From NCBI GenBank assembly GCA_002633005.1, contig NMRA01000123.1, positions 545,785 through 580,941 on the forward strand: a DNA stretch of 35,157 nucleotides, in the 5' to 3' direction. Positions within the stretch are counted from its first letter, which is position 1, and each line of letters starts with the position of its first letter. The notes beneath the pieces are model-generated. The model made no database searches and was not told the origin of the DNA. It was given only the letters and a program-made list of their open reading frames with translations. Made by a program: the position numbers and the translations under genes. The DNA is from Phoronis australis. Its lineage: Eukaryota; Animalia; Phoronida. This document shows, piece after piece, positions 4,637 through 32,950 of this stretch.

Positions 4637-4673
4637 CTGGTGTTATTTCCGGCAAGTACGTCGTCTGCTAATC

Positions 4674-8093: not shown

Positions 8094-8806
8094 CAGTGGC
8101 GGATCTACGTTTTCAGTAAGGGGGGTTTAGGATTCCCGCAAAGGTCGAATCCGAGGCGCGTGGCGCCGAGCGGGCGGGGGGGGAGGTCGGGGGCTGGGGG
8201 TTGTGTAAGACAACTTTTTGTTTTTGNNNNNNNNNNNNNNNNNNNNNNNNNNNNNNNNNNNNNNNNNNNNNNNNNNNNNNNNNNNNNNNNNNNNNNNNNN
8301 NNNNNNNNNNNNNNNNNNNNNNNNNNNNNNNNNNNNNNNNNNNNNNNNNNNNNNNNNNNNNNNNNNNNNNNNNNNNNNNNNNNNNNNNNNNNNNNNNNNN
8401 NNNNNNNNNNNNNNNNNNNNNNNNNNNNNNNNNNNNNNNNNNNNNNNNNNNNNNNNNNNNNNNNNNNNNNNNNNNNNNNNNNNNNNNNNNNNNNNNNNNN
8501 NNNNNNNNNNNNNNNNNNNNNNNNNNNNNNNNNNNNNNNNNNNNNNNNNNNNNNNNNNNNNNNNNNNNNNNNNNNNNNNNNNNNNNNNNNNNNNNNNNNN
8601 NNNNNNNNNNNNNNNNNNNNNNNNNNNNNNNNNNNNNNNNNNNNNNNNNNNNNNNNNNNNNNNNNNNNNNNNNNNNNNNNNNNNNNNNNNNNNNNNNNNN
8701 NNNNNNNNNNNNNNNNNNNNNNNNNNNNNNNNNNNNNNNNNNNNNNNNNNNNNNNNNNNNNNNNNNNNNNNNNNNNNNNNNNNNCCCCCCCGTAGATCCG
8801 CCACTG
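8094..8806. mobile_element. TIR element with 5-bp TSD (hAT5-like), spanning the assembly gap
   Basis: Perfect 16-bp TIR CAGTGGCGGATCTACG / CGTAGATCCGCCACTG; TCAGT direct repeat on both sides. Confidence 0.8.
8227..8784. other. Assembly gap (558 N)
   Basis: Run of N inside a G/C-homopolymer-rich MITE. Confidence 1.
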
Positions 8807-10443: not shown

Positions 10444-10597
10444 CCTCCCGTTCAGTAACGCTAGGACCTCGCTAAAAAGCAAGACTTCGCGAGATTACGT
10501 GAGATATTGCCGTGCATTATTATAAGTGAGAGCACGTGACTTTGACTAAGTTTTAGCTAGGTCCTAGCGTAGGTCCTAGCGTCTACTGAACGCACGC
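10444..10597. mobile_element. ~150-bp Tourist/Harbinger-type MITE, copy 2
   Basis: Same family as 4486-4636; flanks CCG/CTG. Confidence 0.85.
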
Positions 10598-11935
10598 CTG
10601 GTTCGTCTAAAGCGTAAGTCACACTATCACGTCTGTAAGACTTCGAAAGATTTTTTCAATTTGTGCTCAAAAGTTTGAGGGTTGTCTGCTCTACAGAGCA
10701 TTGACGTGTACTTTGTTTCGGAGAACTACATTGGAAAGAAGTTTTTAATTTTTCTAATAAGCAAATACCGGGTTTGGTTTCTTTCATAAACTGAGATGCA
10801 GCGCGAACTTCATAAAGCACTTTGAAGTGCATTAGGAAGAGACAGAAATGTAGGTGACAGTTTAACCTTATGCCCTATTGTTTTGAAGTTTTAGATCGAT
10901 TGTGATTTGTTTGGAACTGGAGCTAGATTAGATTTGCGAGATTACACTGTTTTTATTTTGGTTGTTTCTATTTTCAGTACTGAGACAAATTTACCGTAGG
11001 CAAAAGTAGGTGGTCTTAAGATCACGGCTAACAAATATTTATTATAAACAGTGCCGTTGTTACCCATGTTTCCCGGAATGCGACCAACATGAGCAAACTC
11101 ATTCCGAGGTGTTCATCTAGCTCGTGTAAGAGTAAACATCACACTTAATAAGCTTTCCCAAGAAATTACAACCCTACATTCCTTTATCATTAATTCTTGC
11201 CTGAGCAACTATAGTCAGCATTTTTTAATCTTTTTACAAGTTCGAGCACATTATAGAACTTTCTGGAATCTATCCAATCATTCACAAATATGCACTAGAC
11301 ATTAGAATGTATCGAATCAAGATTTTGCTTCAGTTTAGGACGCTGGAACCTGGTTTGAATTATTCCATTGTAAGCAGCTGATGCTCCATTCTTTCAGTCA
11401 TTAGCTAGCCAGCTAAAATGATGCACACAGGTTATGAACATTAGAGTCGCTTCTAATGTTTGAAAAACCTAGTTTGAACGAGCAGCTGACTGGAACTCGA
11501 AGGACTCTATCATTATTTAGGTGATTTGTAGATTAATATGCACAGCAACGTATGTATATTTATCCCATACCCGTTGAATCTGTCGAGGAAAATACGGCCA
11601 TGTAATAATGTTTTCCCTATTCAGCTCTCGCACTACTTCAACAGTGACCTCTGACATTGAAGGTTCAAAAGGTAGTCAATGTCGACTCGACGTCGTTATC
11701 CGGTTAGATCATCAAACTTTCGGAAAATAGCTTAAAGTAATACAATTGTAGCCGTGTAAATACCACTCAATATGCAACCAGGTCTCAATCGTAACATTTG
11801 GAACAGGACTCAGCCGTTAATTATACGACAGTTCTGTCTCAGTTTTCCATTGCTAAGATATATCGTCTGCAAATCAGGCACCGATTCCTCGCCAATATCA
11901 AACTTTGTTGTCACTGGCCATGACAGCACCCGATA

Positions 11936-12195: not shown

Positions 12196-12273
12196 CTACT
12201 TTAACGAGAATTTGTAAACTGATCTGTGTTGGTAAGTCGAGTGAGGTCGAAGGACACCATCCGGAAAGAGTGG
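12196..12273 (-). CDS. GALM-like: Exon 9 (terminal): PLFPDGVLRPHSTYQHRSVYKFSLK*
   Basis: Acceptor gtctttcag|, phase 0, TAG at 12198-12196. Aligns to the GALM C-terminus PRFPPVLLRPGEEYDHTTWFKFS. Confidence 0.9.
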   Translation of the reverse strand, partial: PLFPDGVLRPHSTYQHRSVYKFSLK

Positions 12274-15200
12274 CTGAAAGACATTGCAAAGTGATGTACA
12301 AATAAAAAATGATACAGTATGACAAAATTGCATTCCATCTTAGCAGCAAAATCCACTCACTTCCTACGTGTTCACGATAACGTAAATTATGAAGGTTTGG
12401 TCTATGTTCACGATATTTTTTTTCTGAATGTAGAGAGCACCACTGCGGCATTAACTTACAATAATCTTTAAAAGAAATATTGACAGAATCAAACATTGGC
12501 AAATTTAATAGCAAAGATTTGGCCAACTTTCAAATGACTCCAATGAATCCATTTGGGATGTCCTCATAGATTTGATGAAGCTACTGGCGAGCTTACTCGT
12601 CGAGATTATTCACCTTTTTCATAAACTACTCTACTTATAGACATCAAGCAATTTTGTCTACACAAAAGTTGTACGCAATCGTCCCACTGTGGAACGACGA
12701 ATCTTGTATTTTATAGAGTGTCACAGGTTCCGTGCAATGATGATGGCTGCTGTTAAAGTGGACGCCATCAAGAGCATGCGTTCAAGCTGTAGCAACTGTA
12801 ACTACGCGCATGTGACTTGCAAAAACAGAGGAACAAAAACGGTTCACACAGGGGTCGTTTGCATTTTAGGTTCACACTAGAAGAAGGTTCATTTTCCCAC
12901 AAGAATCTCCACCAGAGATCTCTGAAAATCTCGAGCTTTACTCAAAATTTTAGCTTGAGTATAAAGGTCATTAAGGGAGAACTTGGTCTAACCATAACAT
13001 ATGATCGAACAAATGATAATTTATTTTCACTTTTGGTTATAATATGTATGACGTAAAAAGTAATTTCGAATTCAAAGATTATATTCCGAGCTGTGGTCTA
13101 TGTGCTGTATATGTAGGGTCAAACAGATTCAAAGGAATTTACTTTTGTCTCCAGAGTGACGCATGACTTATGGGTGTGTGTAACCTGAAAAAAGCATAAG
13201 TGCCCGATCCGTTACGCACGTCAGTCGCAGGATACAGCTAGTGATATCGCGTGCTTCGGCTGTAATGTGTGACGTTTTTTTCGCGACGACCAGCGTGATA
13301 TTGTCAAACACGTAGGCCTAGTAGAGTATTGAGCACTAGGAAATAAGAAGTTTTAAAAATTTAAGGTCGTAAAAAATATGAAGTCACGAAATCATTCGAA
13401 ACGCTTGAGTTTGTAGCTGCCGAGTTGAAGTTTGGTCTCCGACGTTACCATCCGTAGCATACAGTTAGCCTACTTCTAGGACAATAAACGTGAAGGTTGT
13501 ACGTACGTAGTAGGAGTAACCGTCTGGGTAACCCTGAGGTCGCATGTAAAATCCGCTGTACTTCTTGTACGACTGACTGTATTTTCCTATTGTGTTCAAA
13601 TTCTGTCCAGCATTAAAGCCCAAGCCCGGCTGGTCGGTAAACACTTCTAGAAATCTACCACTGGATTTGTCCCACGCTCTGGAAATTTCAAACAGATTGT
13701 AAAGTAAGTCTAAAGAATACTAAACTCTATATTGACGATTTCAACCGATCTTCGTTCTGTCACCTGCTAATGCACCATTGGCGTCATTCTTGAAAGTTAA
13801 AAACAGGAATCAACCAAAGACGTATGTCACAGATTAGATATTGTGGTTTTTTTTGGTGGGTGGTTTTCACCACAGTTGCTTTCTAATTCGCTAACAGCAT
13901 AGTTCACGCTTATTCGTATTCACGTAGCTTCAAAAGGATGTTGCAATGCCGTGCAGTTACCGACGAATAAAAATATAAAATAGTAAAACTAGAAAACTAA
14001 AATGACGAGGGTCGGTACTCAAATACATTAAGATATCCCCACTTATCGAGCGATGCGCTCTTTCAGGTCCCCTGTGCCATTTTATTTTAGATCTATCCAC
14101 ATGTATTCAGCAGTCTGTAGCACACCCTTGAGAAAGAGCGCATCGCTCGATACGTGGGGATATTTTAATACATTTTAGTACCGAGGCTCGTCATTTTAGT
14201 TTTACTAGTTTTACTATTTTATAGCTTCAAAAGGAGTTTTCAAATTTCCTCTAAACATTTGAAGGTTGTCTAAGGATTTTAGAGTACTACTAGTTTCAAG
14301 GAACTGGATAGGAAAGTCGTTTTTAATATCTGATAATAGGCCAAAACCGGCTTTGGTATCCTGCGTGTGGCAACGACGACAGTGAATTACTGTAGGCTCA
14401 GTCTTTTAAACCGTTAACATGTAATATTTAAATGGCTATCAACCCGCGTTCATTCCAAACAGGCGATTATTTTATATATGCCACTTAGTGTTTTAAAAAT
14501 TACATCAGGCGGGAAGAGATTTTTGGATTTGTGGAGAACTTACAGTCTTGGGGCCTGTTCCAACAAAGTCGACTTAGCTACAACAAATCTTAAATTTCAG
14601 TAAATTTTAGAATGAAGGTTAAATTTGTCTCAAAACTAATTCAAGTACGAGATCTTAAGTTTGACTTGATTGTTTGACATAAGCTTTGTCTCAATGTTGA
14701 CCATTTTACCGAATGTGGAAGTTAATCTTAAGTCAGCAATGCACTTAAGTCAGTTTCTTGGAACAAGTCCCTGACCATGGTCGACGCATAAAACAATATG
14801 TCAAGACAAACCTGCCTCCCGTTCAGTAACGCTAGGACCTCGCTAAAAAGCAAGACTTCGCGAGATTACGGAAAACGTTGCCGTGTATTTTAAATGAGAA
14901 CACATGACTTTGACTAGACTTTAGCTAGGTCTTAGCGTAGGTCCTAGCGTTACTGAACGCAGTCATGGTCTCGAGTAAGAAACAATTGTCATGAAATCAC
15001 CTCAAATATGACTAACGAGCAATTTGCAACTAACTCCATTACCGTATGCATATTTGCAAGGGGCAGCCGAGGTCTGCTCAAAGAAACTTCTTTGGGCAAT
15101 TTAGGTAGCAAAAGCCACAACAAAGTTTGATCTTCATGGCGTCTTGGGATTGCCAACTACTCGAAGGAGTAGCGAAAATGACAAAAGGTCGGCCAACAAC

Positions 15201-18200
15201 AATTTTTACATACAATGTCTGTAGCAATATGTGGCTACGGGCACGGTATGTGTGTTGTCTCTATGAAAATGGGGTTTTAGCACGGAAGGCGTTTTTTTGG
15301 GCACGTGAAGAGTTTTGTCCAGAAGCTTAGGCTACTTTTATTGTTGAAATGTTGCTGGCATCACAATTCAATAACTGTGTGTTCTAGCACACATTTTTCA
15401 CTATGCACCGAACTGGCTTGTCTCATGAACGTATTCAAAGAGGCATTCTTACAAATCACGCTTTTCAGCTAATTCCTGTGCCTCTCACGTGAAAGAATGG
15501 TGTGTACTTACGAGGCAGCCCGCTTCATGCCTGGTGAACCCAAAATTGAATAGACTTCGTCCACGCCGAAGGATTCCACCTCGGCTCCCTGATCGAGGAA
15601 TCTGGGCTCGAAAAAGCTTTTTGCAATTTTCACCAGCTTTCCTAATACAAATGCATTGAGATATTGAGATTATTCAAGCTATCCCAGAGTCCACTGCCGT
15701 TTGCGGCTAAGAAGCATTTGACAAGACACCAAATTTTGCTTTATTTCGCAAGAAATGTGTAGAGAATTTCCTTTCTGAGGAATGGATTTTATTTGCTTAA
15801 AAGGATACTAAAACCTGCTTTGGTGATTTCAACCAACACTCTTTCTACACTTGGTAATGCACCATTGGCGTCTTATTTGAATGGTGGAGGTAAAATTCAA
15901 CTAATTCAACTAAACTAACCAATGACTATATAGTATGGTTCTTCTTCAGTAATCTTTCTCCACAGTTAGGTGACACGTAACATGTCTGTAAATAACGCTC
16001 GAGAAAGTTGTTACCCTTGGAATACAAGTTTGTAAATCCAACCGCTAACTGTAGTCGATGTATGGACATGGTCAGATGAACCGAAGCACAGTAGAATTTG
16101 GACACAGAAAATTCCGGTAGTGTATGGGGATATGTCAACACATTTCAGAAAATGTTTTGTTCCTCACGCCATTTTACCAAGAGTATTTATGCAATAAAAG
16201 TTATCTCGTGATTTTAGAAAAGACTTAGTTTTTATTTGCATTCCATTTGGAAATGAGAGTAAGCGGAAACGGAAACAGACGATGGAGGCGCTTTTGTTAG
16301 TGGTTCTTTTTAACGAAGAATTTTATTAATTTAGGATTTACAGAATTGATTAAATGCACAACACTTTTTTATTGTTCACAGTAATTTAGGATTGCGAAGT
16401 AATCGTGAACAGAACAGAGAATTGTTTGTTTATGTTCGAGGTTTGTTGTGAAACAGCAGTGAAGGTTGCACATTCCATATTTGTTGCAAAAGCGCTGTTA
16501 ACGAAAACAAGATGCAAAACCCGCCCATGTGCGTAGCCTTAGTTTCTGACTGGTTGTCTTGTAACTCGCTTCAGGTGCAAGTCACGTTTACCAGTTTAGC
16601 TTTTTTAAGGAGTTTTCCATTTTTTATGAATATTTGAGGGATGGCGATGGTTACAGACCATTCCTCTGCTTTCAGTGTATTCGAAGAGTTGAATGAATGT
16701 AACTGCGTGGTTCGGCAGAGTTTACCAAAAAGACGTGATGCAATTGTTGTTTTACGACGCTGGCTTACTTAAAAAACACTTGAATAAAACTTGTATTTAA
16801 AATAACCGATAATGTCGCTTGAAAAAAATGTCGATTTTGCGTTGATTCTTGTTTTTTTGAGTTTTAATTATTGCGCGCGACCTCACAATAACGTCATAAT
16901 AAACAATAGAAAACTCAAGTGTAGGTATTAGGTGCGATTTAATTCAATTTCCACTTTTGGTTTCATTGATGTGACGTCATTAAAGTTTAAATAGCTCTCA
17001 AGTGGGTGACTCCGAAAAAAACAACGACTGGCTTTTTATGTAGAAGCCAGGTACTCAAAATCCAGAAATAAATGTTAATTACACGAACTTAAAGAATCAA
17101 CAAACCGAGAAATATATTTACAGGCGTTTAACAGTTAACGATATTAATTCGTGTTAAATTTGATTAGAGGTGATTTTTCAGTGACCCATGTTAGTTCATA
17201 GTTTTTTCAGGGGTTTCATTACTGAAACTGTTGCCTCAAAAAAATTAATTTGGTCACATGAACATTTTTCGAAAATTTGTATAAAACAAAGACTGAAACG
17301 CAAAACAACGAAATTAGTTGGCAAAAGTCAAAAATCGAATGAAACTCCTTACTCTCATACTAACGGTCTCGTAATGTTGCTTCGCGTGATAAGGATTTTA
17401 GGTCCGTTGCCAATAAAAAACATCGAAACCATCAGAAACCCGTGAAAATGCGGCTTACCGGGGTCGGGCCAATATCAATTAAAAAATGTCTGTTTGATTT
17501 TCAATGGATTGAGTTGGCACTGCACATTATCACGGTAAAGAATATTTTGAGATCGATTTTATAAAAGCAAAAGTTCTGGATCGATTTTAGGTAGCTAATA
17601 AGGACAAAATGCAATTTTAACTGACAAAGACCGAGTTTGGTACCCTCAGTAACGCAGGCGTATCATGCTTAAACTTAAAAAAGATTCAAAAAGTAGCCAA
17701 TGAACATGGGAATGTTAGTCAACACGAGGAAAAGTGAGGTCATGAACATGAACACATCGGCCATACCTGTGGTTAAGTGCATGCTGCCTCTTTCCACTTT
17801 CACAACTGCGTTTACGTGGAAAACGTGACTGTCCGTGATCTTGCGAGTCATGTTCTAAAAGCACGCCAGATGCGGTTACTCCGTTTCAAAATGAAGCATG
17901 CTGTTTACAGTTACATGTATGTAGGGCCCAGAATATCTGCTAATTTGGCTAAATTTTGAACATCGCATCTCAGAAATGACTGACCGGATTCACGTCTTAC
18001 TTTTAAATACTATGTTCTGTGCACTGTTTTTCAAAACGGCTTCAAGAAATGCTTTTGCATTTGAACTGTTAATCGCTTTAAGCTGCATTCCGTCCTGTTA
18101 ATCATGCTAAAAACGAAAATTAAACTTTACTTTTGTTAGTTTCATTTTCGTAAATTAGGTACCATAACATTAATATAGTTCCCTTTGACTTACCAATGCG

Positions 18201-21200
18201 CGTCGAAATCATCAGCTACTAAAGAAAGCGCTTTAGAGTTTATTGGAATTGGTCAACTAAATTTAAGAAACTGGATTCGAAAATGGCGCACGTGTGCATT
18301 GCCTATGACTTGAGTTGTCGACTCTTTCGGTAATAATTCAAGATAGGCGGATGAACGCGGTAGAGTTTGTAAACACTAAAGCGCCTCGGTTTAAGACAAT
18401 TGGACAAAATGCAGCTTTAATCTGCAAAGACGGGTGAATTATGTTGAACATAAATGTGACATCGTTCTAACTTACCACGCCGCCCAAGTTAAAAAGCAAG
18501 TTTGTACACAGGTTCACTGGAGTTGCTGTTGTCGTTGTGGCGGTGTAGGTGATGGCGAGTTCATTCTCGTCAGTTAGTTCAAATGTCGCATTTACGTTCA
18601 GTTTCCCAGGGTATCCCATATCCTTGTGCTCACTTCTCAGTGACATCACTACAGAGTTTCCAACAACGATGCTTTTCCAGTTTTTCTGAAAAAAGAGATT
18701 TCTGAAAAAAACATGCATACATTGTTTCCGGGAGAACCAGCTAATTTCAAACAGTTAATCCAACCAATACTATTATTGATGAAGACATTCCAAACTGAAA
18801 TCTGACATGAATTCCTACTGGATAATTTTCTATGGGCTCAACAGCAAAATTTGTTCTGCCAAGTGATGAGGAGTGAGATAGAGTGGACACAGAGAGGTCA
18901 TTTCCATGTATTTATCAGCAAGCAGACGCAAGGTCCACCATTTACGCATCATTTCTGTAAGGTTTCGTTCTGCAAAATAGCAGAATCATGTAATGTAGCT
19001 CACTGCATTCGTTGTATTGGCTCAAAGGGTTCATGCATCCGCCAACTACATGTGCTTTACATTACTAAGGGCGACTTCATAAAGAAGCCACAGGTTGACC
19101 TGTAACAACTGCCTTCAAGTGACCTACAGCTCAGCTCATAGCTCAAAGCTGGTTGTACACATGCAGCGAGTAAAATGCTCATTGACCAATTCATTACCTT
19201 CATTGTAACTAGCGTAAATTTAATACACACAGACCTATAGAGATAGCTTGAGAACTTTCTAGTTGTCAGATGATGCAATAATTAATTGCATTGGTTGTAC
19301 CTGGTCAAAGCCAGACGATCCGCCGTTCTTTGAGTTATCACCATCGTTGCTGTCAATCTTGTACGTTTTGTTGCTTCCTCCCGAGGGATTTATAATTGTC
19401 ACCTGTCCAAGGCGCGTGGACCCACACGTGCGACCAATGGTGGCACCCATGTAAGGATTTATTACCCTGTTTTTATTCCTGTAGCCTGTTGGTGCAACAT
19501 TGCTGATGTAGTTTGGTAATGTTGGCAATAAACGTCATCTTAGGTCGATTGTTAATATTGGTGGATTTAGCCGGGATGTCGTGAGGTGCAATCATAATTT
19601 CCGTGAGAAAAAATCTTTGTAGACCTTGAAAAGAAATTGCTTTTCCTGTCCACGATTGGTTTACCCCATTTGTTAATAGTCCTTGGACTGTGGGGGGAAG
19701 CTTTAAAGAGATTTTGGGGAAGGGCCTTCGCCTAGCAATTTTAGTTTGACTTTTTGAATGCAAAAAATCCGGCGTTCACCGTTTCACATGTTCGTGTAAT
19801 TTGCCCATGAGTTTGATGAAAAATGACAAAACTGAAAGTTTGAGTTAGAGTACAATGCGCCACTACTGGTGAAAATAAGTTATCTAAAGCACGGGAACAG
19901 ACACCTTTAAACATTGTTGGTCATATTTAACAAACTAAACGACCCAAATATGTCTAAATAGCTGTAAAAATACAGTTTTAATCACATCATAATGGTAGGA
20001 TATGAACCGGCGCTTCATTGCACGTGCATTGACCATTTTGATATTTATACAACATGTGAACTACGTTGTTTCAGTTAAACGAATGGTGATAAGTTGTAAA
20101 TCAAAAGGATGACAGAGTAGTAGTTATGAGGCAGGAGAAAATATCATAAAACAGCATAAACCGTGGTTTACTTTCGTCGCCCTTTACCAGAGATCCTAAC
20201 TGCATGTCACAATAACTAGACACCAGGGGTCATAGTAAAGATCAACAGAAAACTTCGTCAACTGTGGGTAGACTGGGGTACACTGGTTTGCCACTAATTT
20301 CCTCCCCTCACCATCTGAGTCACTGCTCATGTTTAAAGTAACACGTTTGCTACACTTTGGAGCACAAAGTTGATGTGCAAAAGACCAAAATTGAATATTG
20401 GTCTGCATTTACCAAATTATCGGAGTTTTGATTTGAACCCCTACATTTTTTCTTGGTTGAGTTCAGTGTTCCAAAATTACAATAGTACACCGGGCTGTAA
20501 TACAAATCGTATAAAAGTTGTTAGAAGTTAAGTTGATAAAGAATTGACTACCATCCAATGTTTGTGACAAAATGTTTTACAGTGATGTTCTTAATAAAAG
20601 TAAGTTTTATAAATACATGTATAGCGAATTGTGTCTAGGTAAATCGTACTCGAAAACAGTTGTTTGATAAAGACTGGTGTCGCTTCATTAAATGGCGCTG
20701 GTCATGCCTATTGTAACCACTGCACAATTCGTATAAAACAACCAAACTTTGTTAGCTTGCGCACATGATGATGTAATTTGTCAATTATGTGTTCTGTAAA
20801 TGCCTGGAGCTGGTGTGGAAAACGTCAGAAACGTCACCTTCCAGTCAGTTTACTTTCCTGTTGTGTTCCTTTGATGGCACATACTGTACTTCATACGTCG
20901 TATTTGTATTAACCTTAAAGGTTGTTTTTAATAATTCTGACCAAAAATAGTACTTGTCGTTACGCTGCTCGCTAACAAGTTCAATACACTCTTCCGGGTT
21001 CATACTCGTTCAAATTAGTACATCATGAATTTTAGCGCCAAGTAGCTTGAACATCGCATCGTTTACAACTTTGGTACTTGCGGTAGGCGCTTACTCTACC
21101 AAAATGGGCTTTTCAGTTTGGCATTAGCTAATGCTACCCTCTACTGATCAATATATGTCAATCAGAATTGCTTTGTTTTTATACAAGAGAAACGTATAAT

Positions 21201-24200
21201 TGGCAGGTGAAGGTTATCACGAAATATTCTCTTTCAGTTCAGGTCTCGCTGACTATCAATCCATCAATGCCCACTAAACGGCTTATGTTTATTTGACGTG
21301 CAACACGGCGCACGTTTACTCTCATCAAAGTTCACTTATACTTGCCTAATATTAATCCTTGCAGTATGACATATTTAACTTATTTTGTGTTGCCTACAAT
21401 TGCAAAGACCGAGTGGGGGTTGATTTTGTAAGAATGTGTTATCATCTGTTGCGTGAACTGCAGAAAGATGAAATTTTGGCATTGAAAGAAACAAAATGTT
21501 CGAAAAGGATGTCGCGCACCCTAAGAGGAAATCCCTTTGCACTGCAACAGGGTACTTTACGATCAAATAGATGTTACCATCAATGGTGTGAATGATACCT
21601 TTTTCTGGTGCAACATATAAAACTGTCCCTTTCCTACATGTACCTTGTGAAGAACTGAATCCAAGAAGAACGTCTTCGAACACCCCTTTGGTATCTGGGA
21701 GGTACAGTGCTGTTACCGCCGCCCCGAATGTTATCACCTGAGCGCGAACAGCATTGCTGTTTCGCAGGGTGTATCTGGAGACAATCAAAGAGTACAGGTA
21801 CAACTTACGGTTTGTGAACAAATGAGGCCATTCAACCAGCGGCACGCAGTTCATTCACAATATAATTTTGCTCGGTATTTGTGTTTGGGGGCTAGTGATT
21901 GGGATAAACGAAAACCGGAATCACGTGTGTCCAGAGTTCGAATACTTATTTCCGTAGTACCTTAAAACCCTGTATCGCTTAGGCTTCTTAAATCAAGTTT
22001 GTTGTTTTGATGTTTGTTTTGATCGAATGTTTTGCAGCTGCAATGCAACATAAGGCGTGATTGGTGTCGACACAGTTTTGATGCTTCAGTTGACCTGAGG
22101 TGAACACATCCAGTACGTCAATGACTTTTGCGCGAATGGTGCGATCAGTGGACTTAAAATATCCCTATTGTGGGAAGAATATACTTGCCCATAGGAAAGA
22201 GTTTGTATAGCATTCCTATGAGTCTCTAGTGGAAACAAGATACTAAGTCATTCTGTAGGTTCCATAGAAGCGGGGACTTGTTTAGATTTTAAAAATATTT
22301 TAGCTGCATTTCCTTAGCGGTGGGATATGGAAATTCAAAAGCCGCATTTTCTGACGAATCGAGAGTGCTTCTTTTTACGGGTCTCTCTGTTAAGTTTATT
22401 GGAATATGTAATCAGTGTTCGCGGAGCCAATTTTGACACGCGTCAGAACAGAAATGCATAACTTAAAATTTTTGGAGGACCCCGTCGGAGTTGCCACGCC
22501 TGGCCCATGTAAAACCCATTTGTGTGGTGGCACATGAAATATGACCAATTTACCTGAGCACCTTGCTGCCGTCGTTCAAGTTACCGAAATCGTCCACAAC
22601 AATACGTGGAATAACGCCCTGAAAAACAGGAGACTCGCAATTGATGGTCTCAAGTCACTTTCCTGCAACCTGCACTGTACATGTAAGCAATGTGCATTGT
22701 ACGTGTAAACTTTGTGCTCTGTACATGTAAGCAATGTGCTCTGTACATGTACGTGTAAGCAATGTGCAATGCACGTGTAAACATTGTGCTCTCTACATGT
22801 ACATGTAAACAATTTGCTCTGTATGTGTAAGCAATGTGCACTGTACGTGTAAGCATTGTGCTCTGTACATGTAAGCAATGTGTACTGTACATGTAAGCAA
22901 TGTGCACTGTACATTTAAGCAATGTGCACTGTACGTGTAAGCAATATACACTGTACATGTAATTAAGCAATTTACACTGTACATGTAAGCAATGTGCACT
23001 GTTTCGTTATGTTCTTGTGGGAAATTCGAAAGACAATGCCATCATAAATGGACATAAATTACTTCGCAATGTTTGACTTACACTGCACGAGTCCCTCGAA
23101 TGGTTACATAAAAATTCATTCGTCATCTGTACAACAAACGGTCGTCTCTAAATACCGAATCCCAAATAGCGTCCCTGAGTCTGTAGTCAAGCGTCCTCAA
23201 GTATAGACAATCCTTACCTTATGTTGAGATTTCTTAAAGACTCCCGTGACAGCTAACAGAATAAACACTATCGCTATGAGTAAGAGAAGGCACATGATGT
23301 AGAAGGCTATGAGACATTTCTTACGGCGCGTTAGCTCCGTTCGTGTTCCAGGTTTCCCGCCGCTCGTTACCTCGGATAAGAAGGCCTGCATGAGCGAACT
23401 TTTCTTTTTATCAGCCACTCTTGGAATAGGTGGCACCTTTATGAGTGGTGGTTTACTATCCTGTGAACTACTTCCTAGCGGAGGTCTCGTTCCCGGGGGA
23501 AGCAAACGATTACTGGCGGGCGTAGAAGCAGGGGAGAGGCCTCGTTGCGGTAAGCTCGCGACCGAAGTGTTCTCACTTGATGTTTGAGGACGTGTACCTC
23601 CAAGCAGGTTGATTTTCAGTTTAGCTGCTAATTGTTTCCCCTTTTCAGCGATTGGTTTTAAAGGACTGGTTTTGGAAACACCGTTTGGGTTACGTTTCAA
23701 TCCTTCCACTGCAACCTGCATTTTCTGCGGCAGCGGATGTTGACCTTTCTGGCAAATTGCAATTCCCTTTTTGTCTGCTGTCATGACAACGGGGGATCCA
23801 ATGATCATATCTCTGTTCATATCAATGGGAGATCGTTCACCACGTCTGGCTGCTGCCAATTTGGCGACATCTGTGTGAGCAACCCCACCAACTGGTGAGG
23901 GGGCTTTTTTACTTGAATCTCCAATTAGCTTTTGTATTGTCTTCGCTGTGGTTGTTTCTCCTGCCTTTATAGGTCTTTTTTGAGGGGTTGTCACACGTTG
24001 TCCAGGTGGTATTTTCACATTCTGCTTGGGAATACTTGGTGACACGTTTCCTTTGTCTTTTTTACCTATCTGAATCGACGATACCTCGCATTTCTGGCCC
24101 ACCCCGTCAGCTGGAGGTAAATTAGTACCTACCTTTTCACTAAATACTAATCGAGATTTTAACTGTTCTTTGGTTTGTTGAAGCATTTCCGTAGATGTTT

Positions 24201-27200
24201 TTTCAGTTCCTTTCTTTTTCTGCTGAGTGAGATCAAAAGTTCCGACAAAATCCTTATGAGCCTTGGTTTGACGAGTACTGTCTAGCAATGGCGGTTTCGT
24301 GTGATCTTGTGCACATATGGATGGTTCGTTATTTGATGGTTTTACTGATTCTGTGGTTTCAGGGCGCACTTTTATCGACTGTTTTGCAGTTTGTTTGTCT
24401 TTAAGAATCTTGACATCACCAGGTTCCGCTGCTTTATTTTGGTTTATTTGAACACCATAGCGTAGTAAAGGCTTAGCTTCATCATCTTTGGTAACCCGGG
24501 ACACTTCTGTAGAAGGCGATACTGCTTTGTTCTCTTTTGGAGTAGTGGCATCATTCGGTTCCATCGACCCATGATCTTCCTTGTGAGCATCTCCGTGTTT
24601 CAATAGCTTACTCTCATCACCTTCAACCCGTTTGAGTTCTTTGTTTACGTCTGGTGACTTCAATGGTTCTTTAGTCTCCCGAGACACTTCTGTAGAAGGT
24701 GTTACAGCTTTGTTCTCTTTTGGACTAGTGGCATCATTAGGTTCCATCGGCCCATGATCTTCCTTCTTGTAAGCATCTCCGTGTTTTAATAGCTTACTCT
24801 CATCACCTTCAACCCGTTTGAGTTCTTTGTTTACGTCTGGTGACTTCAATGGTTCTTTAGTCTCCCGGGACACTTCTGTAGAAGGTGTTACAGCTTTGTT
24901 CTCTCTTGGACTAGTGGCATCATTAGGTTCCATCGACCCATGATCTTCCTTCTTGTGAGCATCTCCGTGTTTTAATAGCTTACTCTCATCACCTTCAACC
25001 CGTTTGAGTTCTTTGTTTACGTCTGGTGACTTCAATGGTTCTTTAGTCTCCCAGGATACTTCTGTAGAATGTGTTACAGCTTTGTTTTCTTTTGGACTAG
25101 TGGCATCATTAGGTTCCATCGACCCATGATATTCCTTCTTGCGAGCATCTTCTTGTTTCAATAGCTTACTCTCATCACCTTCAACCCGTTTGAGTTCATT
25201 GTTTACGTCTGGTGACTCCAATGGTTCTTTAATCCCCTGGGACTTTTCTGTAGATGATGTTACGATTTTGCTCTCTTTTGGAAGGGTGAAATCTGTAGGC
25301 TCTGTTGGCCACTTTTTCTCCTTCCTGTCAACGTCACTGTGTTCTGATAACTTACTCTCCCCATGTTTGACATGTGTGAGTTCTTTGTTTGCATCTGGTG
25401 GTTTTATTGGCGTCTCGGCCTCCGGAGACACTTCTGAAGAGGGGTTAACAATTTTGTTTTCTTTTGGAATCGTGACATCAGCAGGTTCTATTGACCTCTT
25501 ATTCTCATTCGTGTGAACATTGCTCTTTTGCGAGGGCTTACTCCCATCGTCCTTGCCGTATACGTGAGCTTTTATCTCGCTGACGTTTGAATTGTGGTCT
25601 CTTTCTTTCTGTGCTGTATCCGTTGGAGATTCAACCACATTCTTATCTTTGTTTTCTTTAGCCAATTTCATAATATTTTCTGTTGCATCAAACGCTTCTC
25701 TCTTTGGAATCGATCCTCGCGTACCCGCTATTGCTCCCGCCAGGTCTGTTTCAATTCCAGTCCATGCAGGCGTTACTGTACCTCCGCTAGCTTCGATGTC
25801 GCATTTACTTTCCTCATTGGCACCACCACCCTTGTCTCCGTTTGTGAGTTTATCGTCAGTTTTAAAAAAGCTTTTAAGGCCCATGGCAATGCCACTCATC
25901 GTGCGTTGGATCATTCCCGAGTCTGTCTTTTTCATTTGATGCTCTTTGCCTTTACTTTGTCTTCTCGGTGGCTCTCCAGTCAATTTTGCTGCATTCATTT
26001 CAGCAACATCTTCAGAAACGACATTACAGGGAGTTTCGATGTCAGTTTGGCATGTGTTCTTCTCTTTGACGCTCTTTTGAGGTTGCTTACCTTGGACTCT
26101 ATCCGATTCTCTTCTTAAAAAATCAGAAAGCACTCCTGATGGTTCCTTTTTCACGTCCTTGCTAGTAGTATCTTCAATTGATTTTCCGTGCACAGGTATG
26201 GCTCCTAAGCCCTTTTGTTCATGACTAACAGTGGAATGATTTAGTAGCCCTGCCATTTTTTGCTCATCACTCATGGGTAGTTCATCCATTAGCGAAGACA
26301 TTTCTCCCTTTATTAAAGAGTTTACCGTATCGTCAGTCAGCTTGCCAGCACCGGCGGTTAAAGTTTTGATCTTTGCATGATCGGTCGCCACAGAATGCGA
26401 TTTTTCCTGAGCTTTTAGATTAGGCTGTTCTCCAGTCTCTATCTGCGCTTTGGCGTCATTTGCTATATCTGTTTTGACCGATTCCTTTGCCACCTGTGGT
26501 TTTACCAAACCCTTGTCTAAGTGTTCTTTTTGTATATGAGCTGTGGTCACATCCGTTTTTCTGATGTTTTTACATGCAGTCCCTTCAGAAGTTCTACTTG
26601 TTTCATCAACTTCCTCCACGTGTAATTGTTCTGTTGCCAACGTGTCTTGCGCCTCATTTAAATGTCCATGAATCGTGGCTCTTTCCTCGGTATTTCTCTT
26701 ACCGTCAGCTGCATTGAAGGTTTTCTTTGTTACTTCTCGACCATCTAATTGATCGACCACAACATCGTTTTCATTAATCTGCCCAGCGTTTGCTGGTTGT
26801 TCAGATTCCTTTGGCTTAAGTATAGCATGCATATCTTTGTCACCTGGCTCAGTGACAGATTTTAGTGCCGTGATTTTTGAATCGCGCTCAACAGAATTCT
26901 GAAGAATCTTTGTTTGGTCAATTTGTTTTTCCGCAATATCAACCTTCTTGCTCAATTCTGTCGCCCGTGTTTCTTCTCCTTGCGTTGACGAGAGTGCAGG
27001 CCTACTTGCATCTTTGTCGTCACTTCCATTCTTGCCATGTTCACTTCCTCTATTATCGTTAAGTGTGCTTTGCAGGTGCTCTTCTAACTCCTTAGGAACG
27101 GAGACAGCGTGGTCAGCTGCACGTGCAACACTTCCACTGTTATCTCCTGGATCATGTTTCTTGGAAAACGAGGCGTCGTGTTCCCCTGTAACATGACCCG

Positions 27201-30018
27201 TCTTTCCGCTTTTTTCATCACCATGAGCGTCTTTAGCATTACCGTTTCTAATCGTGTTTCGATCAAGTTTTGCGGCTTCGGTTGGGGCCATTATTTTAAT
27301 ATCTTCGTTTGCGTTTGATAGGTCGGTAGCTAAATTTCCCGGAGTTGTTGGCGAGGTCAGGACACCGTCTTCTTTATGTGCACTTAACATCCTGTCCTCA
27401 AGTGAGCCTACATTCTCAGTTCCGCTAGCATCTGCAGCAACAGCAGAGGCGGCCAAAAAATGTTCACCTCCCCTTTCATCAGTACCAGGACCCCGTGATT
27501 CCTCGGAAGATAGCTTAGCTCGAATTTTACCAAATAAGATTTTGGGAAATCCAGGTATATCTTCTTTCTCTTCCGCTGGCCAAATCTGGTCCTTGCCCGT
27601 TATTGCACCATTTTCTGTAGACGGAATTGGTGGCATTTGTTTTCCTATAAAGGATTTTACGATAATATCTTCACTCGTTCCGGATACTGATTGTTTTTCA
27701 CCAGTAGGCGGAAAATTTGTTTGGTCGTTCCCCTTTTCCTCGAAAATTCCGTTCGACTTAACGCCAGGATGTTCACACGCCTCATTAACTTTAATGGCTC
27801 GTTCGTCTAACTTTTTCTGTTCTTTGCTGCCATTTTGATTATTTGCACTGCCATCAGGAGTTCCTGCTAGACGAATTGTAGTGCTCACTTCCTCAGTTTT
27901 TGAGGAAACCGGTTTTAGTTTTGTAGCACCAGCGTCTTCCTTCGACATTTTACCCATTATACTTTTTTGAGAATTTTGCGCTATCTCGTTCGCGTATGCT
28001 ATTGTTCTACCAGCTTCAAGAACACAAGACTTCTTGGATACCGGCAAATTAGCGGCAGCCTTGTTGATTTCGTCACTAACTACCTGACGTAAGGGTCCGC
28101 TCGGTGAATCACCCGGTTGCACTTTCGGTTTGCTTTTGTCTTTCTCATCTGTTTGCGATTCTTCTAACCCATCCTTCGGCGACAGTTGACCCGACTGTTC
28201 TTTAGATGTGTCTTTCTCGTCCTTCTGAGTGTGTAAATTTACAAACCCTTCATTTTGTAACCGCCTGCTTGCATCCTTTGTGGTGCCTGTTGTGACAGCG
28301 TTTGTAAAATGTCGCACTGGTGGTTGCACAACGCCTTTGTGGAGGCTTAATTCAGCATCTTCCTTCGGAGATCTCTCGAACGTAGGAGTTTGTTTTTCGT
28401 GGCACATTTGGATTTCGTGTAATTGTTGTTCTCGGCTCTCTTGGTGTCTATTGTCAATGTGGTCATCAACTTCTTTGAAAACAAGGGTTAATCGTCGGTC
28501 AGACTCGGGGATACTATGCTGAGCACCTCCCGCACAGACAACATCAGTGCACATGTTCCCGGTTTTTATGCTATCTGAATCCAAAGGCTTCTGGAAACGT
28601 TCGTTTTTTTCGATTATTTGCGCCCGCGACAAAGGCTGGCTTCCAGGTTGACTGGTAACCGTTTTACCTTTGTCGTCTGCGCCAAATCCAGTTTGAGTTC
28701 GAGATTTCATTTCTTGTGCTAGTGTGTCAATTCCTTCTTTACCTTCTGAAGCTACCCTATTTTCACCTTTTTGCTTAGCCTCTCCATGCCGTGCTTGTTT
28801 GTCTTGAATTTGACCGCGATTTGCCTCTTTTAAGTTTACAGGAACATGTCCTCCAACGGTGGCTGGTTTCGATTCTGATCCTGAATCTGCAGCTTGTTTC
28901 TGAGAACATATTTTCTTCTCTTTTTCGGGAGATCTATCTCCTGTTTTACCATTTGAAACCAACCTGTTATCGATTTTATCCTTAGCTTCTCCGTGACCTC
29001 GTTTATCTTCTGCTAGACCAGTATTTTGGTGTAGAACACTGGTTTTTGAAAGTGCGTCTTTATTCAGTCTAGTTTTTGACACTTTGCCTTGTGCTTGCTT
29101 GTCTGTAGCTTGGTTGTAATGCGGTTGCTGACCCTTTACTAAGTCCCCGCTAGTTTTAGTAACGTCTGTCCCTGGTGCTTCTCGCGAAAACTTGTCAACT
29201 AATTCATCATCTTTTCCAGCCAATCCCTTGCGACCACTAAGGGCTTTTTTTAACCCATGAACAAGGCCAGACATAGAATCCACAATGCTTCGTTTTCTTG
29301 GCATTTGCCCGTCATCCAAAAGATCCTCGTGATCGAAATGTGGCGGCCGTTTTGACGAAATAGCTTTGGTTTTATCAGCTTTATGTACATGATCCAAGTT
29401 GTCAATGTGATCTGTTTTCTTTTTGCTACCGTCCCGTTTTCCTTTTCTTTTCTTTGTCTTTTCTGTACGTGAGGTCACTGATTCCATCCTCGAAGTATCA
29501 GAAATTTCTGATTGCGTTGTTATGCTTTCACCATCTTTATTCGTTTTCTTGTGTGCCATAGCTTTCCGAAGTTTCGGTCTCGGCGTTGGCGAAACTCGCT
29601 CTTGCATTTCACATGGCGATGAACTGCGTCGACCCGACTCACTAGCGGCCTCGACTTTAGTCCGGGTATCTATCACATCATCCAGAAAACTCAGGGTTAC
29701 ATCAATCCTGACTTGCTTTGATTCCGTGCCGTGGATCACTCCACTGAGAGTGGCTTGGCTTATGTTTGACTGCATGCCCGATCTGGCTAGAAATTCGCCT
29801 AAGTTGACCGACTTTAGCGAATGAACTGGTGCTGTTTTGTCCAACGCAATGGGTTCAGACGGCGACTGCTTGCTCGTGACCTTTAAAGACTTGCGTCCAG
29901 TTAAAACCACGCTGGAGCGGCCCTTTTGATCAGTGACAGATGGTTTGCTGACTAATCCTCCGTGATCAATTTCATCCAACATCTCGGCAAGATCTTTTGG
30001 CAAAGATGATCCAGACAT
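12196..30018 (-). CDS. GALM-like: Spliced gene, 9 coding exons (30018-23218, 22618-22554, 21774-21644, 19485-19301, 18685-18476, 17854-17767, 15641-15512, 13678-13507, 12273-12196; 7860 nt, ~2619 aa): giant type II membrane protein with a C-terminal aldose 1-epimerase (galactose mutarotase)-like domain, predicted catalytically inactive
   Basis: All 8 introns are GT-AG with matching phases (0,2,1,0,0,1,2,0). Exons 2-9 join into a 352-aa sequence colinear with GALM from the N-terminal FG-x-L-x-DG motif to the C-terminal FP..VLRP...Y.H...YKF motif, ending in TAG. Exon 1 ends in a hydrophobic helix followed by AAG|GTAAGG. The exon 1 to exon 2 join is inferred, not transcript-proven. Confidence 0.85.
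13507..13678 (-). CDS. GALM-like: Exon 8: AWDKSSGRFLEVFTDQPGLGFNAGQNLNTIGKYSQSYKKYSGFYMRPQGYPDGYSYY
   Basis: Acceptor tttccag|, donor TAC|GTACGT, 172 nt. Aligns to SGRVLEVYTTQPGVQFY...GK.G..Y.KHSGFCLETQNWPD. Not in the ORF track. Confidence 0.92.
13974..14223. mobile_element. Foldback/MITE with ~90-bp inverted arms (13974-14064 / 14132-14223), in intron 7
   Basis: TATAAAATAGTAAAACTAG...ATCGAGCGATGCGCTCTTTC is mirrored by GAAAGAGCGCATCGCTCGAT...CTAGTTTTACTATTTTATA. Confidence 0.8.
14551..14770. mobile_element. Non-autonomous Harbinger MITE related to the element ending at 944
   Basis: Ends GGGCCTGTTCCAACAAA and TTTCTTGGAACAAGTCC. The left end resembles the reverse complement of 900-944 (CTTAGCTA.ACAAATCTT). 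Internal CTTAAG repeats; flanks TTG/CTG. Confidence 0.7.
14815..14964. mobile_element. ~150-bp Tourist/Harbinger-type MITE, copy 3 (in intron 7)
   Basis: Same family; flanks CTG/ATG; 44 bp from another Harbinger MITE. Confidence 0.85.
15512..15641 (-). CDS. GALM-like: Exon 7: (G)KLVKIAKSFFEPRFLDQGAEVESFGVDEVYSILGSPGMKRAA(S)
   Basis: Acceptor ttgtattag|, donor TC|GTAAGT, 130 nt. GVDEVY aligns to GFDHNF. Not in the ORF track. Confidence 0.82.
17767..17854 (-). CDS. GALM-like: Exon 6: NMTRKITDSHVFHVNAVVKVERGSMHLTT(G)
   Basis: Acceptor gcttttag|, donor ACAG|GTATGG, 88 nt; phases 0 to 1 fit its neighbours. Aligns to I.DH.V.I.A.......LIPTG. Not in the ORF track. Confidence 0.8.
18476..18685 (-). 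CDS. GALM-like: Exon 5: KNWKSIVVGNSVVMSLRSEHKDMGYPGKLNVNATFELTDENELAITYTATTTTATPVNLCTNLLFNLGGV
   Basis: Acceptor cttttttcag|, donor GTG|GTAAGT, 210 nt. Contains the GYPG and TPVNL..FNL mutarotase motifs. Confidence 0.95.
19301..19485 (-). CDS. GALM-like: Exon 4: YRNKNRVINPYMGATIGRTCGSTRLG...DGDNSKNGGSSGFDQ
   Basis: Acceptor ccaacag|, donor CAG|GTACAA, 185 nt. Aligns to PYFGAVIGRVANRI...NSLHGGVRGFDK. Confidence 0.92.
21644..21774 (-). CDS. GALM-like: Exon 3: YTLRNSNAVRAQVITFGAAVTALYLPDTKGVFEDVLLGFSSSQ(G)
   Basis: Acceptor gtctccag|, donor G|GTACAT, 131 nt. Aligns to the mutarotase YTL.N...V.I..GA.IT.L..PD..G...DVVLGF motif. Confidence 0.92.
22554..22618 (-). CDS. GALM-like: Exon 2: GVIPRIVVDDFGNLNDGSKVL(R), GALM-like N-terminus
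   Basis: Acceptor tgtttttcag|, donor AG|GTAAAT, 65 nt. Matches the mutarotase N-terminal FG-x-L-x-DG-x-x-V motif. Not in the ORF track. Confidence 0.85.
22671..23002. repeat. Intronic minisatellite, ~22-bp unit (GCACTGTACATGTAAGCAATGT), about 14-15 copies
   Basis: Directly visible tandem repeat in intron 1, ending about 50 nt before the exon 2 acceptor. Confidence 0.95.
23218..30018 (-). CDS. Exon 1 (6801 nt, 2267 codons): K/E/S/D/T/G-rich low-complexity region, 62-aa tandem repeats, Pro-rich segment, C-terminal TM helix
   Basis: Uninterrupted 6.8-kb ORF. The ORF track starts at a TTG (30045); the first ATG is 30018 in AAAATG context, with an in-frame TGA at 30058-30060 upstream. Donor AAG|GTAAGG at 23218/23217, phase 0. 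Confidence 0.9.
23236..23328 (-). other. Signal-anchor/transmembrane helix RRKK-CLIAFYIMCLLLLIAIVFILLAVTGVF
   Basis: 27 uncharged, mostly hydrophobic residues directly after an RRKK cluster. No N-terminal signal peptide, so type II (N-in) topology is likely, although KK also follows the helix. Confidence 0.85.
24490..25490 (-). repeat. Coding tandem array, 186-bp (62-aa) unit EPNDATSPKENKAVTPSTEVSRETKEPLKSPDVNKELKRVEGDESKLLKHGDAHKKEDHGSM, 5 full units plus a partial one, with degenerate copies on either side
   Basis: Equivalent positions at 25484, 25298, 25112, 24926, 24740 and 24557 (spacing 186,186,186,186,183). The frame is always preserved. Confidence 0.95.
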
Positions 30019-30905
30019 TTTGAATTTATCAAATATCACTTTCAATTCATCATGAATTCATCGGCATTTTCAAGCTGCGAACTTTTGTTGTCACGAGATC
30101 GTTCATGCGTGTTATGAATCGCATGTGTGATAATTGATAGCTTTCGCAAATAAATAAAAAGGTCCATTTGCCAATAACTCAAGTATAAATTACAAATTCC
30201 TAGCGGCAAGACAACTTCGGTTGGCGTCCGTTTCATGAACAACTCTGTCGATAGCCACGAATGTACCTGAAGACCATGAGGTTACATGCAGTCATATTAC
30301 GAGTTGATGAACTAACATTTTAAAGTGCTCAGAACCACCATCTCCTTTTCAGACATGATTGCATTGTCAACGCCATTAAACCTTCCTTAATAGCACTGTA
30401 TATCACTATCGTGATTTCAACATCTCAAAAAAAACAGAAAAGAAAAGCAAAGGAACTTCAGTTGAAAGTTTCCCAGCTCCACGGACATGAGTACCCAGCG
30501 CCAGTGTGTCATGTCCACCAACACATTACTTTCTTGTACAAACACCCGCTCTTATCCAAGGTGCCGCGGAAAAGTTAAAGTAGGCGAAGCGTACGCAAGA
30601 GCTAAGTTGTCATAACCACCACAAGCGCAACGCCTGGCCCTCTATTTATCTTAAGTACCATAAACCACGGGGAAACGAGGGACAATATCTGACGAGTTTT
30701 CACACTAAACACCGCGACTGGTTGTATCGACCAATAAATGCTCGCAGCTCGAAATCAGCAAATTAACGCCTCGTCAGATAATGCTTGCCAATATTCATAC
30801 TGCAGTAAATGGCTGGAAACTCACAGATGTGTGTAAGCGATTGCGGAATCATGGTCTATGGAGCAGTGAGGAGGAAAGTGCCGCTTTCTAGACCTTTCCA
30901 TAATC

Positions 30906-31065: not shown

Positions 31066-31260
31066 TAATCTGCGGGACACTAGAAACACTGACATGGCTT
31101 CGACCGGAATACACCGTTCTCTAAGGAAACGGGTTTTCGATTCAGCATTTTAAGATATTTACTCTTCTCGCTGGTTCATGAAACTTACAGTTGATAAGAA
31201 ATATGTGATTCTTCACACCTATATCCACTCCCCTTGCTGATTTCTCGTCGTGAACCTTAA

Positions 31261-32950
31261 AGGAGCATGCCACCCAAAAAACAACCTAATTTGTATCAAT
31301 TTAGATCGAGTAGTTCTACTCCATAACGACACGTACGGTTGCGTTACCTGACACCTGACGGCAGACGGAGGTGTTGAAATTATCCAATGACGTCATCGGT
31401 TTCACACGCAGTCTGTTCAGCAGTTCACAACACTGGTTACTGGTGTCAGCTTATCGCTTGAAGTCATCGTTTAACACCAATAAATCATCAGACTTCGATG
31501 TAAAACCCTTAAAAATACACCGAGTTCTTATAAAAACGTGCTGTTTTATTTCGCTCTTACGGATTTATTGGTATTTGGACACACCGTAGCCTACAAAGTT
31601 CGGCAGGCCAATAAGGTCCGTAGCAGGAGTTTGGGGTCTGTTTGAAGATAATGTCGAAGTATTTTCCGTGAGATACAAATAGGAGAACCTAGATCTGTGT
31701 TGTTTAGACTTGTGATATTTTGAGTTCTAAACACAAAACGCTTGTTGTCCTGGCCAGTGGCTCGGAGACCGATCAGGCCCGTTGCGGCCGGCCGGATTGA
31801 CTGGTTATCGACGGCCAGTGGCTCGGAAACTGATCAGACATCACGAACATAAACCAGCCAAAGTTCAGTGGAAACTAAACTTCCAGTCAAGAAAATACTA
31901 TACTAGTGAGCCAAAGTAATGTGCACGTGATTATGTTGGTGAATTAGCCACGAAACTGCAAATCTACTTACTCGTCGGGGGCCGCGAATTCAGGTTCCGC
32001 TTTGGCCACAGTACCGTCAGGGCAGAAGTTGTACATTGACAATCGTTATTTGAATAATATAAATGTAAATAAAGATTCCCCTAACACCTGACCGTGGGAT
32101 GGAAATCGAGTTGTTTCGCAACAGTTTTTGCCAGCAAACACTAAAATAGCATGAGCTCACACGGCCTCGGTGTCTCGTCAATTAGTTTTATTGCACCTAA
32201 AGCCGGTAACGCAGTGATTTATTCATTCTGCGGCTGGCTTCCCAAATCATTTGCTCTCTCGAACACTCCAAAGGCATTACAAATTGCATCTAATGAGGCA
32301 CAATTTGTTACAGTTTTATATAAGTATTGGTTAGGATGAAAATAAATCATTTTGAAACAGAACGCTCAGTAATAAACGCCAACATGGCACTGGCCAACTC
32401 CGTCGCAATCCCGACTTGCTAGGACGAGATAGAGCTCATCAGACCCGACTTCGCAGGTGGATCGTTAAGTTTTACAGGCTATCAATTCGAACAGGAATAC
32501 AGTGATGAAGAAATACTAGAGAGGCGCCGTGAACAAGTTCAGACAACGGAACGTATGGAGTTCACAAGCCGGCATTCGTGAGGCACTATCGACGTCTGCA
32601 GGCCACAGACACGGAGATGTTTCACGGCCTCATACTTGCTATTTACAGCGTAGAGATCATCCTTCACTACCATGAGCCACTTCCTAAGCATTGCGGACTC
32701 TCGAGGTAGTAAAAAACGATATACCCGCTTTCCTCGCAGCTGCTTAGTTTGAACAAGCGGGAACGATGCACCGCAATATAGCGGCATTCACTCTGCATAT
32801 GAACAATTGACGTCGCTAGCGTCGTTTCTCACCTTGCTCACAGGTTAACGCGACATCTCTTGGCAAGGTAAGGTCGACCGTATGCTAGGCGATGTGGATA
32901 TAGACCGATTAAGACGGCAAAAAACTAATTAAATCGGGTGGCATTCTCCT
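31261..32950. mobile_element. Non-autonomous Kolobok-like DNA transposon (1690 bp)
   Basis: TTAA on both sides (31257-31260, 32951-32954); 15-bp TIR AGGAGCATGCCACCC / GGGTGGCATTCTCCT (14/15 match); AGG termini; internal THAP-like remnant. Confidence 0.85.
32595..32787 (-). pseudogene. Degenerate THAP-type zinc-finger ORF inside the Kolobok-like element
   Basis: MPLYCGA...RVYRFLLPRESAMLRKWL...HLRVCGL matches the THAP pattern C..A..C / F.P...R.W / VC..H, but the second Cys and the final His are missing. Confidence 0.6.

Follow-up and report, generated by a model that had tools for sequence, protein, structure and literature searches.

A minus-strand gene of the phoronid Phoronis australis is described here that joins a very long hydrophilic region to the fold of galactose mutarotase (GALM). 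The gene lies in a 35,157-nucleotide stretch of contig NMRA01000123.1 (assembly GCA_002633005.1, positions 545,785 to 580,941 of the forward strand), referred to below as the window and numbered from its first letter. Its nine exons (Table 1) are separated by eight introns that are all GT..AG with matching phases, and together they give 7,860 nucleotides with one terminal stop. The spliced product of 2,619 residues, about 285 kDa, begins with about 2,234 hydrophilic residues, which are followed by a single hydrophobic segment of 27 residues and a full GALM/aldose 1-epimerase domain. That a disordered region, a transmembrane (TM) segment and a GALM domain are combined in one gene is very probable. 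The favoured reading of this architecture, which is given about an even chance, is a type II membrane protein expressed in one tissue or stage; its GALM domain would serve for non-catalytic binding on the outer or luminal face of the membrane, and its 2,234-residue predicted-disordered tail would be a cytosolic spacer or scaffold.

The first-pass annotation of this DNA had proposed that a 6.8-kb exon is joined to eight GALM exons, and both the coordinates and the anatomy of that model hold. A scan for open reading frames (ORFs) finds a stop-free frame of 2,286 codons at 30057-23200 (-), preceded by an in-frame stop at 30060-30058; the gene model starts at the ATG at 30018 and exits at the GT after 23218. 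None of the 2,267 codons of exon 1 is a stop, whereas each of the other five frames has 56-212 stops, and 500 shuffles gave stop-free runs of 214 codons at most. Exon 2 is without a Met, in keeping with the earlier argument that it needs an upstream coding exon. No other gene is evident in the ORF scan of the window.

The splicing of the gene has been followed in short reads of three RNA runs with the same species label (X5, X6 and X7; about 18-19% of the reads of each). The reads of X5 and X6 have the strandedness of a minus-strand RNA, most intron bins are empty, and exon 1 is covered continuously at a depth of about 13-43. The critical joint between exons 1 and 2 (23218-22618) is spliced in 14 reads of X5 and 22 of X6. 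The following joints are found in 20 and 29 reads (exons 2-3), 16 and 8 (exons 3-4), 19 and 27 (exons 4-5) and 31 and 18 (exons 5-6). For exons 6-7, 36 reads of X5 and 13 of X6 have loose ends at 17766 with the sequence that opens exon 7, and exon 8 lies under stranded reads (24 and 19 at 13609). Being short, the reads document the coding sequence in pieces rather than as a single molecule. The junctions of exons 7-8 and 8-9, which are outside the stretch covered by the joint analysis and not among the joints listed, rest on phase and homology.

Two observations had been named in advance as fatal to the model, namely an exon 1 ending at its own stop while the GALM exons use another first exon, and a lack of expression. 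In X5 and X6, no alternative first exon joins exon 2 (22618) at 3 reads or more among the rows listed, and no joint lies inside exon 1 apart from a minor alternative donor, the GT at 23324 (-), seen in 3 of 25 junction reads in X6 and 0 of 14 in X5. Use of this donor would yield a soluble tail-only product or a substrate for decay. The gene is expressed in two of the three runs, at about 15-17 fragments per kb per million. Depth over exon 1 is zero in X7, despite a similar run size and similar depth on dispersed repeats, so expression is sample-restricted. Coverage fades away within about 100 nucleotides upstream of the ATG, with an estimated mean depth of 4.2 over 30001-30450. Short upstream ORFs at 30106-30042 (-) end ahead of the main ATG.

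The GALM fold is present over its whole length. Residues 2273-2618 match a profile of 172 relatives with 291 bits, from position 3 to position 343 of its 344, and this domain-wide match (341 of 344 positions) bears out the earlier claim of an entire GALM fold and places the protein in the aldose 1-epimerase fold family PF01263. The Pfam model PF01263 itself matches exons 3, 5 and 8, with exon 5 alone reaching 43.6 bits against a cut-off of 27. Human GALM (1SNZ) is the best match in the PDB for exons 5 and 8, and BLAST identity to relatives rises to about 37%. A match of exon 7 to PDB 8VD6 was below the cut-off and is rejected. The fold core is largely retained: of the 68 columns that at least 85% of relatives conserve, 50 are kept, mostly Gly, Pro and hydrophobic core positions.

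The active site has fared differently. In human GALM, the sugar is described as surrounded by Asn81, Arg82, His107, His176, Asp243, Gln279 and Glu307, with His176 as the acid and Glu307 as the base (PMC11441068). The seven positions here are Gly, Ser, Asn, Asn, Asp, Gly and Arg. Only Asp243 is kept and six of the seven are replaced, including the catalytic acid (Asn2456) and the catalytic base (Arg2583); Tyr281 is also changed, to Asn. Replacement at these positions is unusual, as His176 is found in 154, Glu307 in 153 and His107 in 152 of the 172 relatives, and all three are lost here. The Lactococcus lactis chains of the PDB that exons 5 and 4 match best are the variants with Asn at the two His positions (1NSX and 1NSU), engineered mutants of low activity. 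By its sequence, the protein belongs to the PF01263 fold family and falls outside the active galactose mutarotases (EC 5.1.3.3), having lost His176, Glu307 and four of the five residues Asn81, Arg82, His107, Asp243 and Gln279. The domain is a predicted pseudoenzyme and, because both catalytic residues are lost, the fold is likely to serve in binding outside the cell and not in catalysis. The only two Cys of the domain (2353 and 2454, in exons 4 and 5) each stand just before a former active-site position, and a disulfide between them is possible.

The membrane segment is the single hydrophobic stretch of the protein, with a Kyte-Doolittle 19-mer score of 3.25 against 1.25 for the next best. The N-terminus is not hydrophobic, and the hydropathy scan finds no signal peptide or second hydrophobic segment; one internal hydrophobic segment without a cleavable signal peptide is the pattern of a type II protein, and in AF2 single-sequence runs on the last 300 residues of exon 1 the TM segment is the only confident helix. 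Within five residues of the segment, the flanking charge is +4 on the N side and +2.5 on the C side. Sequons before it are depleted (7 observed, 15.2 expected), and those after it number 3, with 4.0 expected. The lack of a signal peptide together with this small charge bias and the sequon pattern would favour an N-in/C-out, type II orientation, as read from sequence.

The charge-hydropathy boundary separates residues 1-2230, which plot as disordered, from the GALM domain, which plots as folded. The tail contains about 1.7% aromatic residues and has no Pfam match near the cut-off. The weak Pfam matches to Tetraspanin and Engrail_1_C_sig were below the cut-off and are rejected. AF2 gave residues 1-500 a mean pLDDT of 44.6, with tentative alpha/beta elements at 1-125 and a helix at 396-442. 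The first 125 residues (29644-30018) are more hydrophobic than the remaining tail and may form a small element with a fold or a binding role. No support is drawn from linear motifs in the tail.

Selection on the two parts of the protein was compared with 41 coding variants classed among those listed in the RNA reads (one intronic row and one row from an untranslated region were left out). In the GALM domain, 5 synonymous and 3 non-synonymous variants give a ratio of non-synonymous to synonymous polymorphism (pN/pS) of 0.18 (p=0.019 against neutrality). In exon 1, the counts are 8 and 25 (pN/pS 0.89), with no nonsense change. The only indel among the variants listed in exon 1 is a 12-nucleotide deletion that keeps the frame, as does the 186-nucleotide unit of the internal repeat. 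From these small numbers, the frame is kept, the sequence of the tail varies almost freely and the domain seems to be under constraint.

The proposed mechanism begins with two observed steps: a single type of transcript, present in some samples only, carries exon 1 spliced to the GALM exons, and most of the sugar site is replaced in the sequence while the fold core is kept. As there is no signal peptide, the hydrophobic segment would act as a signal-anchor, leaving the N-terminus cytosolic and the GALM domain luminal, where its three sequons, at Asn2371, 2426 and 2465, would be open to glycosylation. Long TM segments are typical of the plasma membrane, and a Cys adjoining a basic patch is often palmitoylated; the long TM segment and the juxtamembrane Cys after a basic patch would favour the late secretory pathway or the plasma membrane. 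There, the dead domain may bind a protein partner or a glycoconjugate through its surface or a remodelled cleft, and the tail would work by length and composition as a spacer or scaffold, because its sequence is nearly unconstrained. One tissue or stage would, by analogy only, be the likely site, the germ line being the first guess.

The origin of the domain is indicated by an intron. The intron after the FNLxG motif stands at the point beyond which 44 short database ORFs have a Val and no further similarity, as they would if they read through into a GT donor. A shared intron, and with it a duplicate of an intron-bearing animal GALM gene, is therefore supported. The recruitment of a GALM duplicate had already been proposed in the first-pass annotation, and it gains from both this intron position and the active-site loss, the latter absent from that annotation. 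Trees of 39 proteins, with 11 active-site columns removed, do not place the protein, which sits on a long branch of 1.7 changes per site, and their bootstrap had not settled. A bacterial origin is not favoured, because the animal intron is shared; the grouping with the bacterial P0002 and P0025 is weak (74/80, long branches). The P0002 cluster (1,265 members) and P0025 form a large, apparently bacterial GalM-like family without His107, His176 and Glu307, an unnamed pseudo-mutarotase family. A forced grouping with three mutarotase-like aphid and adelgid proteins (P0181, P0182 and P0184) is not rejected (p-AU 0.71), and its tree lies 15 log units above the quick free tree.

Orthologues have been sought by several routes, but a 2,600-residue orthologue whose tail had diverged lay beyond the reach of each, and the negative results do not show absence. 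No orthologue was found with the whole of exon 1 among 7,981 scored candidates (proteins of 1,250-3,978 residues) or with exon 5 among 205 (proteins of 124-2,000 residues). HMMER with exon 5 gave none above 60% identity among the best 150 of 1,653 matches, and a His-less profile gave none among the best 120 of 1,731 matches, in proteins of 259-2,000 residues only. A metagenome scan returned 17 loci, of which the 8 true matches are all intron-less GalM genes and none is an orthologue. An exact look-up of the unspliced exon-1 ORF had no match, and the ESM atlas showed nothing above 0.76 for the TM-proximal 300 residues and only generic families for exon 5 and for P0197, a 410-residue protein discussed below. 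A hydrophobic segment is present in 33 of the 203 relatives aligned over at least 200 residues; by eye, nearly all are N-terminal signal peptides, and none of the 33 has more than about 120 extra residues.

Several known systems resemble parts of the protein. Human GALM (1SNZ, PF01263) is matched by the whole domain, with one intron position shared; it differs in the six sugar contacts replaced here, His176 and Glu307 among them, and in lacking the TM anchor and the 2,234-residue N-terminal region. Human GALM is also described as cytoplasmic (PMC11441068), whereas the domain here is predicted to be luminal. Drosophila is reported to have five GALM genes, two of them canonical, and the Galm-like pseudoenzymes Galml1 and Galml2 (PMC11836677). 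These are divergent paralogues predicted inactive with restricted expression, and the comparison is by description only; the loss of catalytic residues is likewise seen here. According to the same report, almost all non-canonical carbohydrate-enzyme paralogues of Drosophila are testis-restricted. An aldose 1-epimerase-like gene of a prawn was reported as 3.19-fold up in the reproductive season (PMC7812440), which has a weak bearing on the germ-line guess. In function, GnT1IP-L/MGAT4D offers an analogue, as a tissue-restricted membrane protein from a carbohydrate-enzyme family that acts by protein contact of its luminal domain; it differs in its unrelated glycosyltransferase-like fold, its Golgi location and the lack of a giant tail in what is reported of it, and no homology is claimed (PMC4572887).

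A likeness in layout is offered by P0197, an unannotated protein from a public assembly, with a short N-terminal tail, a hydrophobic anchor and then a GALM domain. It differs in its intact active site and the lack of a giant tail, and there is no support for it as the sister of the Phoronis protein, although this grouping is not rejected either (p-AU 0.37). P0197 groups with the mussel GALM P0186 (100/94) and is thus probably animal. With its five sequons and intact site, it is a candidate luminal mutarotase in animals. The first-pass annotation had known of no family with the present architecture. The combination of the three parts was not found in these limited searches, and a TM-anchored inactive mutarotase was not found described in the open-access literature. 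The claim of novelty does not extend to the elements, each of which has precedent: GALM pseudoenzymes are described in Drosophila (PMC11836677), and P0197 is a short membrane-anchored GALM.

How else could these data be explained? The ligand pocket may have been remodelled rather than lost, so that the domain would recognise another sugar or glycan, probably an anionic one, as a lectin or sensor, with Arg307 and the Asn residues at 107, 176 and 281 forming a new site. This explanation is held tentatively and is on the unlikely side. The three aphid and adelgid proteins carry the same Asn107, Asn176, Asn281, Arg307 and Pro308, their forced grouping with the Phoronis protein is not rejected with those columns removed, and the domain, in which Asp243 is kept, appears constrained. 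However, the careful tree does not group the protein with them, and a His to Asn change takes one base and occurs also in the bacterial P0002 family. The aphid proteins, of about 450 residues, are themselves without a hydrophobic segment and without Asp243, and six of the seven sugar contacts are gone. Convergence and shared descent are both possible for the common active-site state. A bolder and doubtful extension is a new receptor class, an extracellular sensor made from an anomer-interconverting housekeeping enzyme, in which the rebuilt cleft (Asn107/Asn176/Asn281/Arg307-Pro308) would serve a new ligand such as an anionic glycan, with signalling or anchoring through the 240-kDa disordered cytosolic tail, possibly on gametes; the signature would then mark an old, unrecognised animal pseudo-mutarotase family.

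It is improbable that the working product is short, either about 410 residues from Met2210 (tail, TM segment and domain) or released by cleavage, with most of exon 1 dispensable. The pN/pS of exon 1 and the same layout in P0197 would suit such a product, but 2,267 codons have stayed free of stops, the repeat unit and the deletion in the reads both preserve the frame, 36 in-frame Met lie upstream of Met2210, and RNA depth does not rise near 23400 as an internal start would make it do. A reversed or organellar topology is judged highly improbable. In it, the GALM domain would be cytosolic and regulate active GALM or galactokinase, with the long region luminal or outside. A signal-anchor is not expected to carry 2,234 preceding residues across the membrane, and this counts against it, as do the sequon depletion on the N side and the lack of a signal peptide or second hydrophobic segment. 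In its favour are the small charge difference across the TM segment, the cytoplasmic location given for canonical GALM (PMC11441068) and the proposal that the Drosophila pseudoenzyme paralogues modulate canonical enzymes (PMC11836677). The most remote of these explanations, a decaying and functionless duplicate fused by chance to an upstream ORF, would account for the long branch, the lost active site and the lack of an orthologue in the searches made. Against it stand a frame intact over nine exons with exact splicing, the expression level in two runs, the synonymous excess in the domain and the retained core columns.

The favoured reading, an expressed type II protein with a non-catalytic GALM module and a cytosolic spacer tail, has to be weighed against several findings of this analysis. 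With no orthologue found in these searches, no conservation between species is shown. The contrast in constraint between domain and exon 1 is not significant (Fisher p=0.084, 41 variants only), and the pN/pS of exon 1, being near 1, gives no sign of sequence-specific function. Because the AF2 runs used single sequences, disorder finds little support in their low confidence. Over 15 flanking residues, the charge bias comes to no more than +5 against +3.5, and the product is known from sequence and RNA, not from protein. It is so far a single-species gene without ligand or phenotype. If the topology is true, a cytosolic housekeeping enzyme fold would have been moved across the membrane, lost catalysis and been kept under selection, a clean recruitment of a pseudoenzyme to a surface or luminal role. 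An automatic pipeline would wrongly name this protein an aldose 1-epimerase. The five substitutions in common with aphid paralogues suggest that the GALM cleft has a defined non-catalytic state, and with one 350-residue domain the ligand question for GALM-like pseudoenzymes thereby becomes directly testable.

Table 1. Features of the Phoronis australis gene in window positions (substitutions in human GALM numbering).
Feature	Position	Strand	Remarks
Exon 1, coding part (6,801 nt)	23218..30018	-	Start Met, ~2,234-residue predicted disordered region, RRKK, TM segment, short stem; stranded RNA continuous
In-frame tandem repeat, 186 nt (62 residues) x 4.3	24495..25282	-	Acidic di-leucine-like motif in each unit
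Stretch removed by alternative donor 23324	23218..23324	-	TM segment lost and frame shifted; 2,243-residue product without TM segment or GALM domain
Predicted transmembrane signal-anchor, residues 2235-2261	23236..23316	-	Hydropathy; two Cys at N-terminal side
Exon 2, start of GALM domain	22554..22618	-	Phase/translation; RNA joints
Exon 3	21644..21774	-	PF01263, E 5.3e-6; RNA joints
Exon 4	19301..19485	-	Asn81>Gly, Arg82>Ser, His107>Asn; RNA joints
Exon 5	18476..18685	-	Catalytic acid His176>Asn; PF01263, E 3.2e-11, above cut-off; RNA joints
Exon 6	17767..17854	-	Phase/translation; RNA joint from exon 5
Exon 7	15512..15641	-	Asp243 kept; loose-end reads match exon start
Exon 8	13507..13678	-	Gln279>Gly, Tyr281>Asn, catalytic base Glu307>Arg; stranded RNA depth
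Exon 9 with stop codon	12196..12273	-	AATAAA 38 nt downstream (12158); junction inferred from phase and homology

Several minor features of the window were also observed. Intron 1, which separates the TM exon from the first GALM exon, contains a 22-nucleotide minisatellite of about 14 copies (22671-23002). A 35-nucleotide stretch at 17528-17562 is matched in X6 by reads of an unrelated transcript that are loose on both sides. The window has a 558-nucleotide assembly gap at 8227-8784 and a 56/62-nucleotide tandem repeat near its end (34857-35039). High-copy dispersed repeats, abundant in RNA too, lie at 13750-14230, 14800-14950 and 31257-31600, and related copies were noted by eye near 4500-4640 and 10450-10600.

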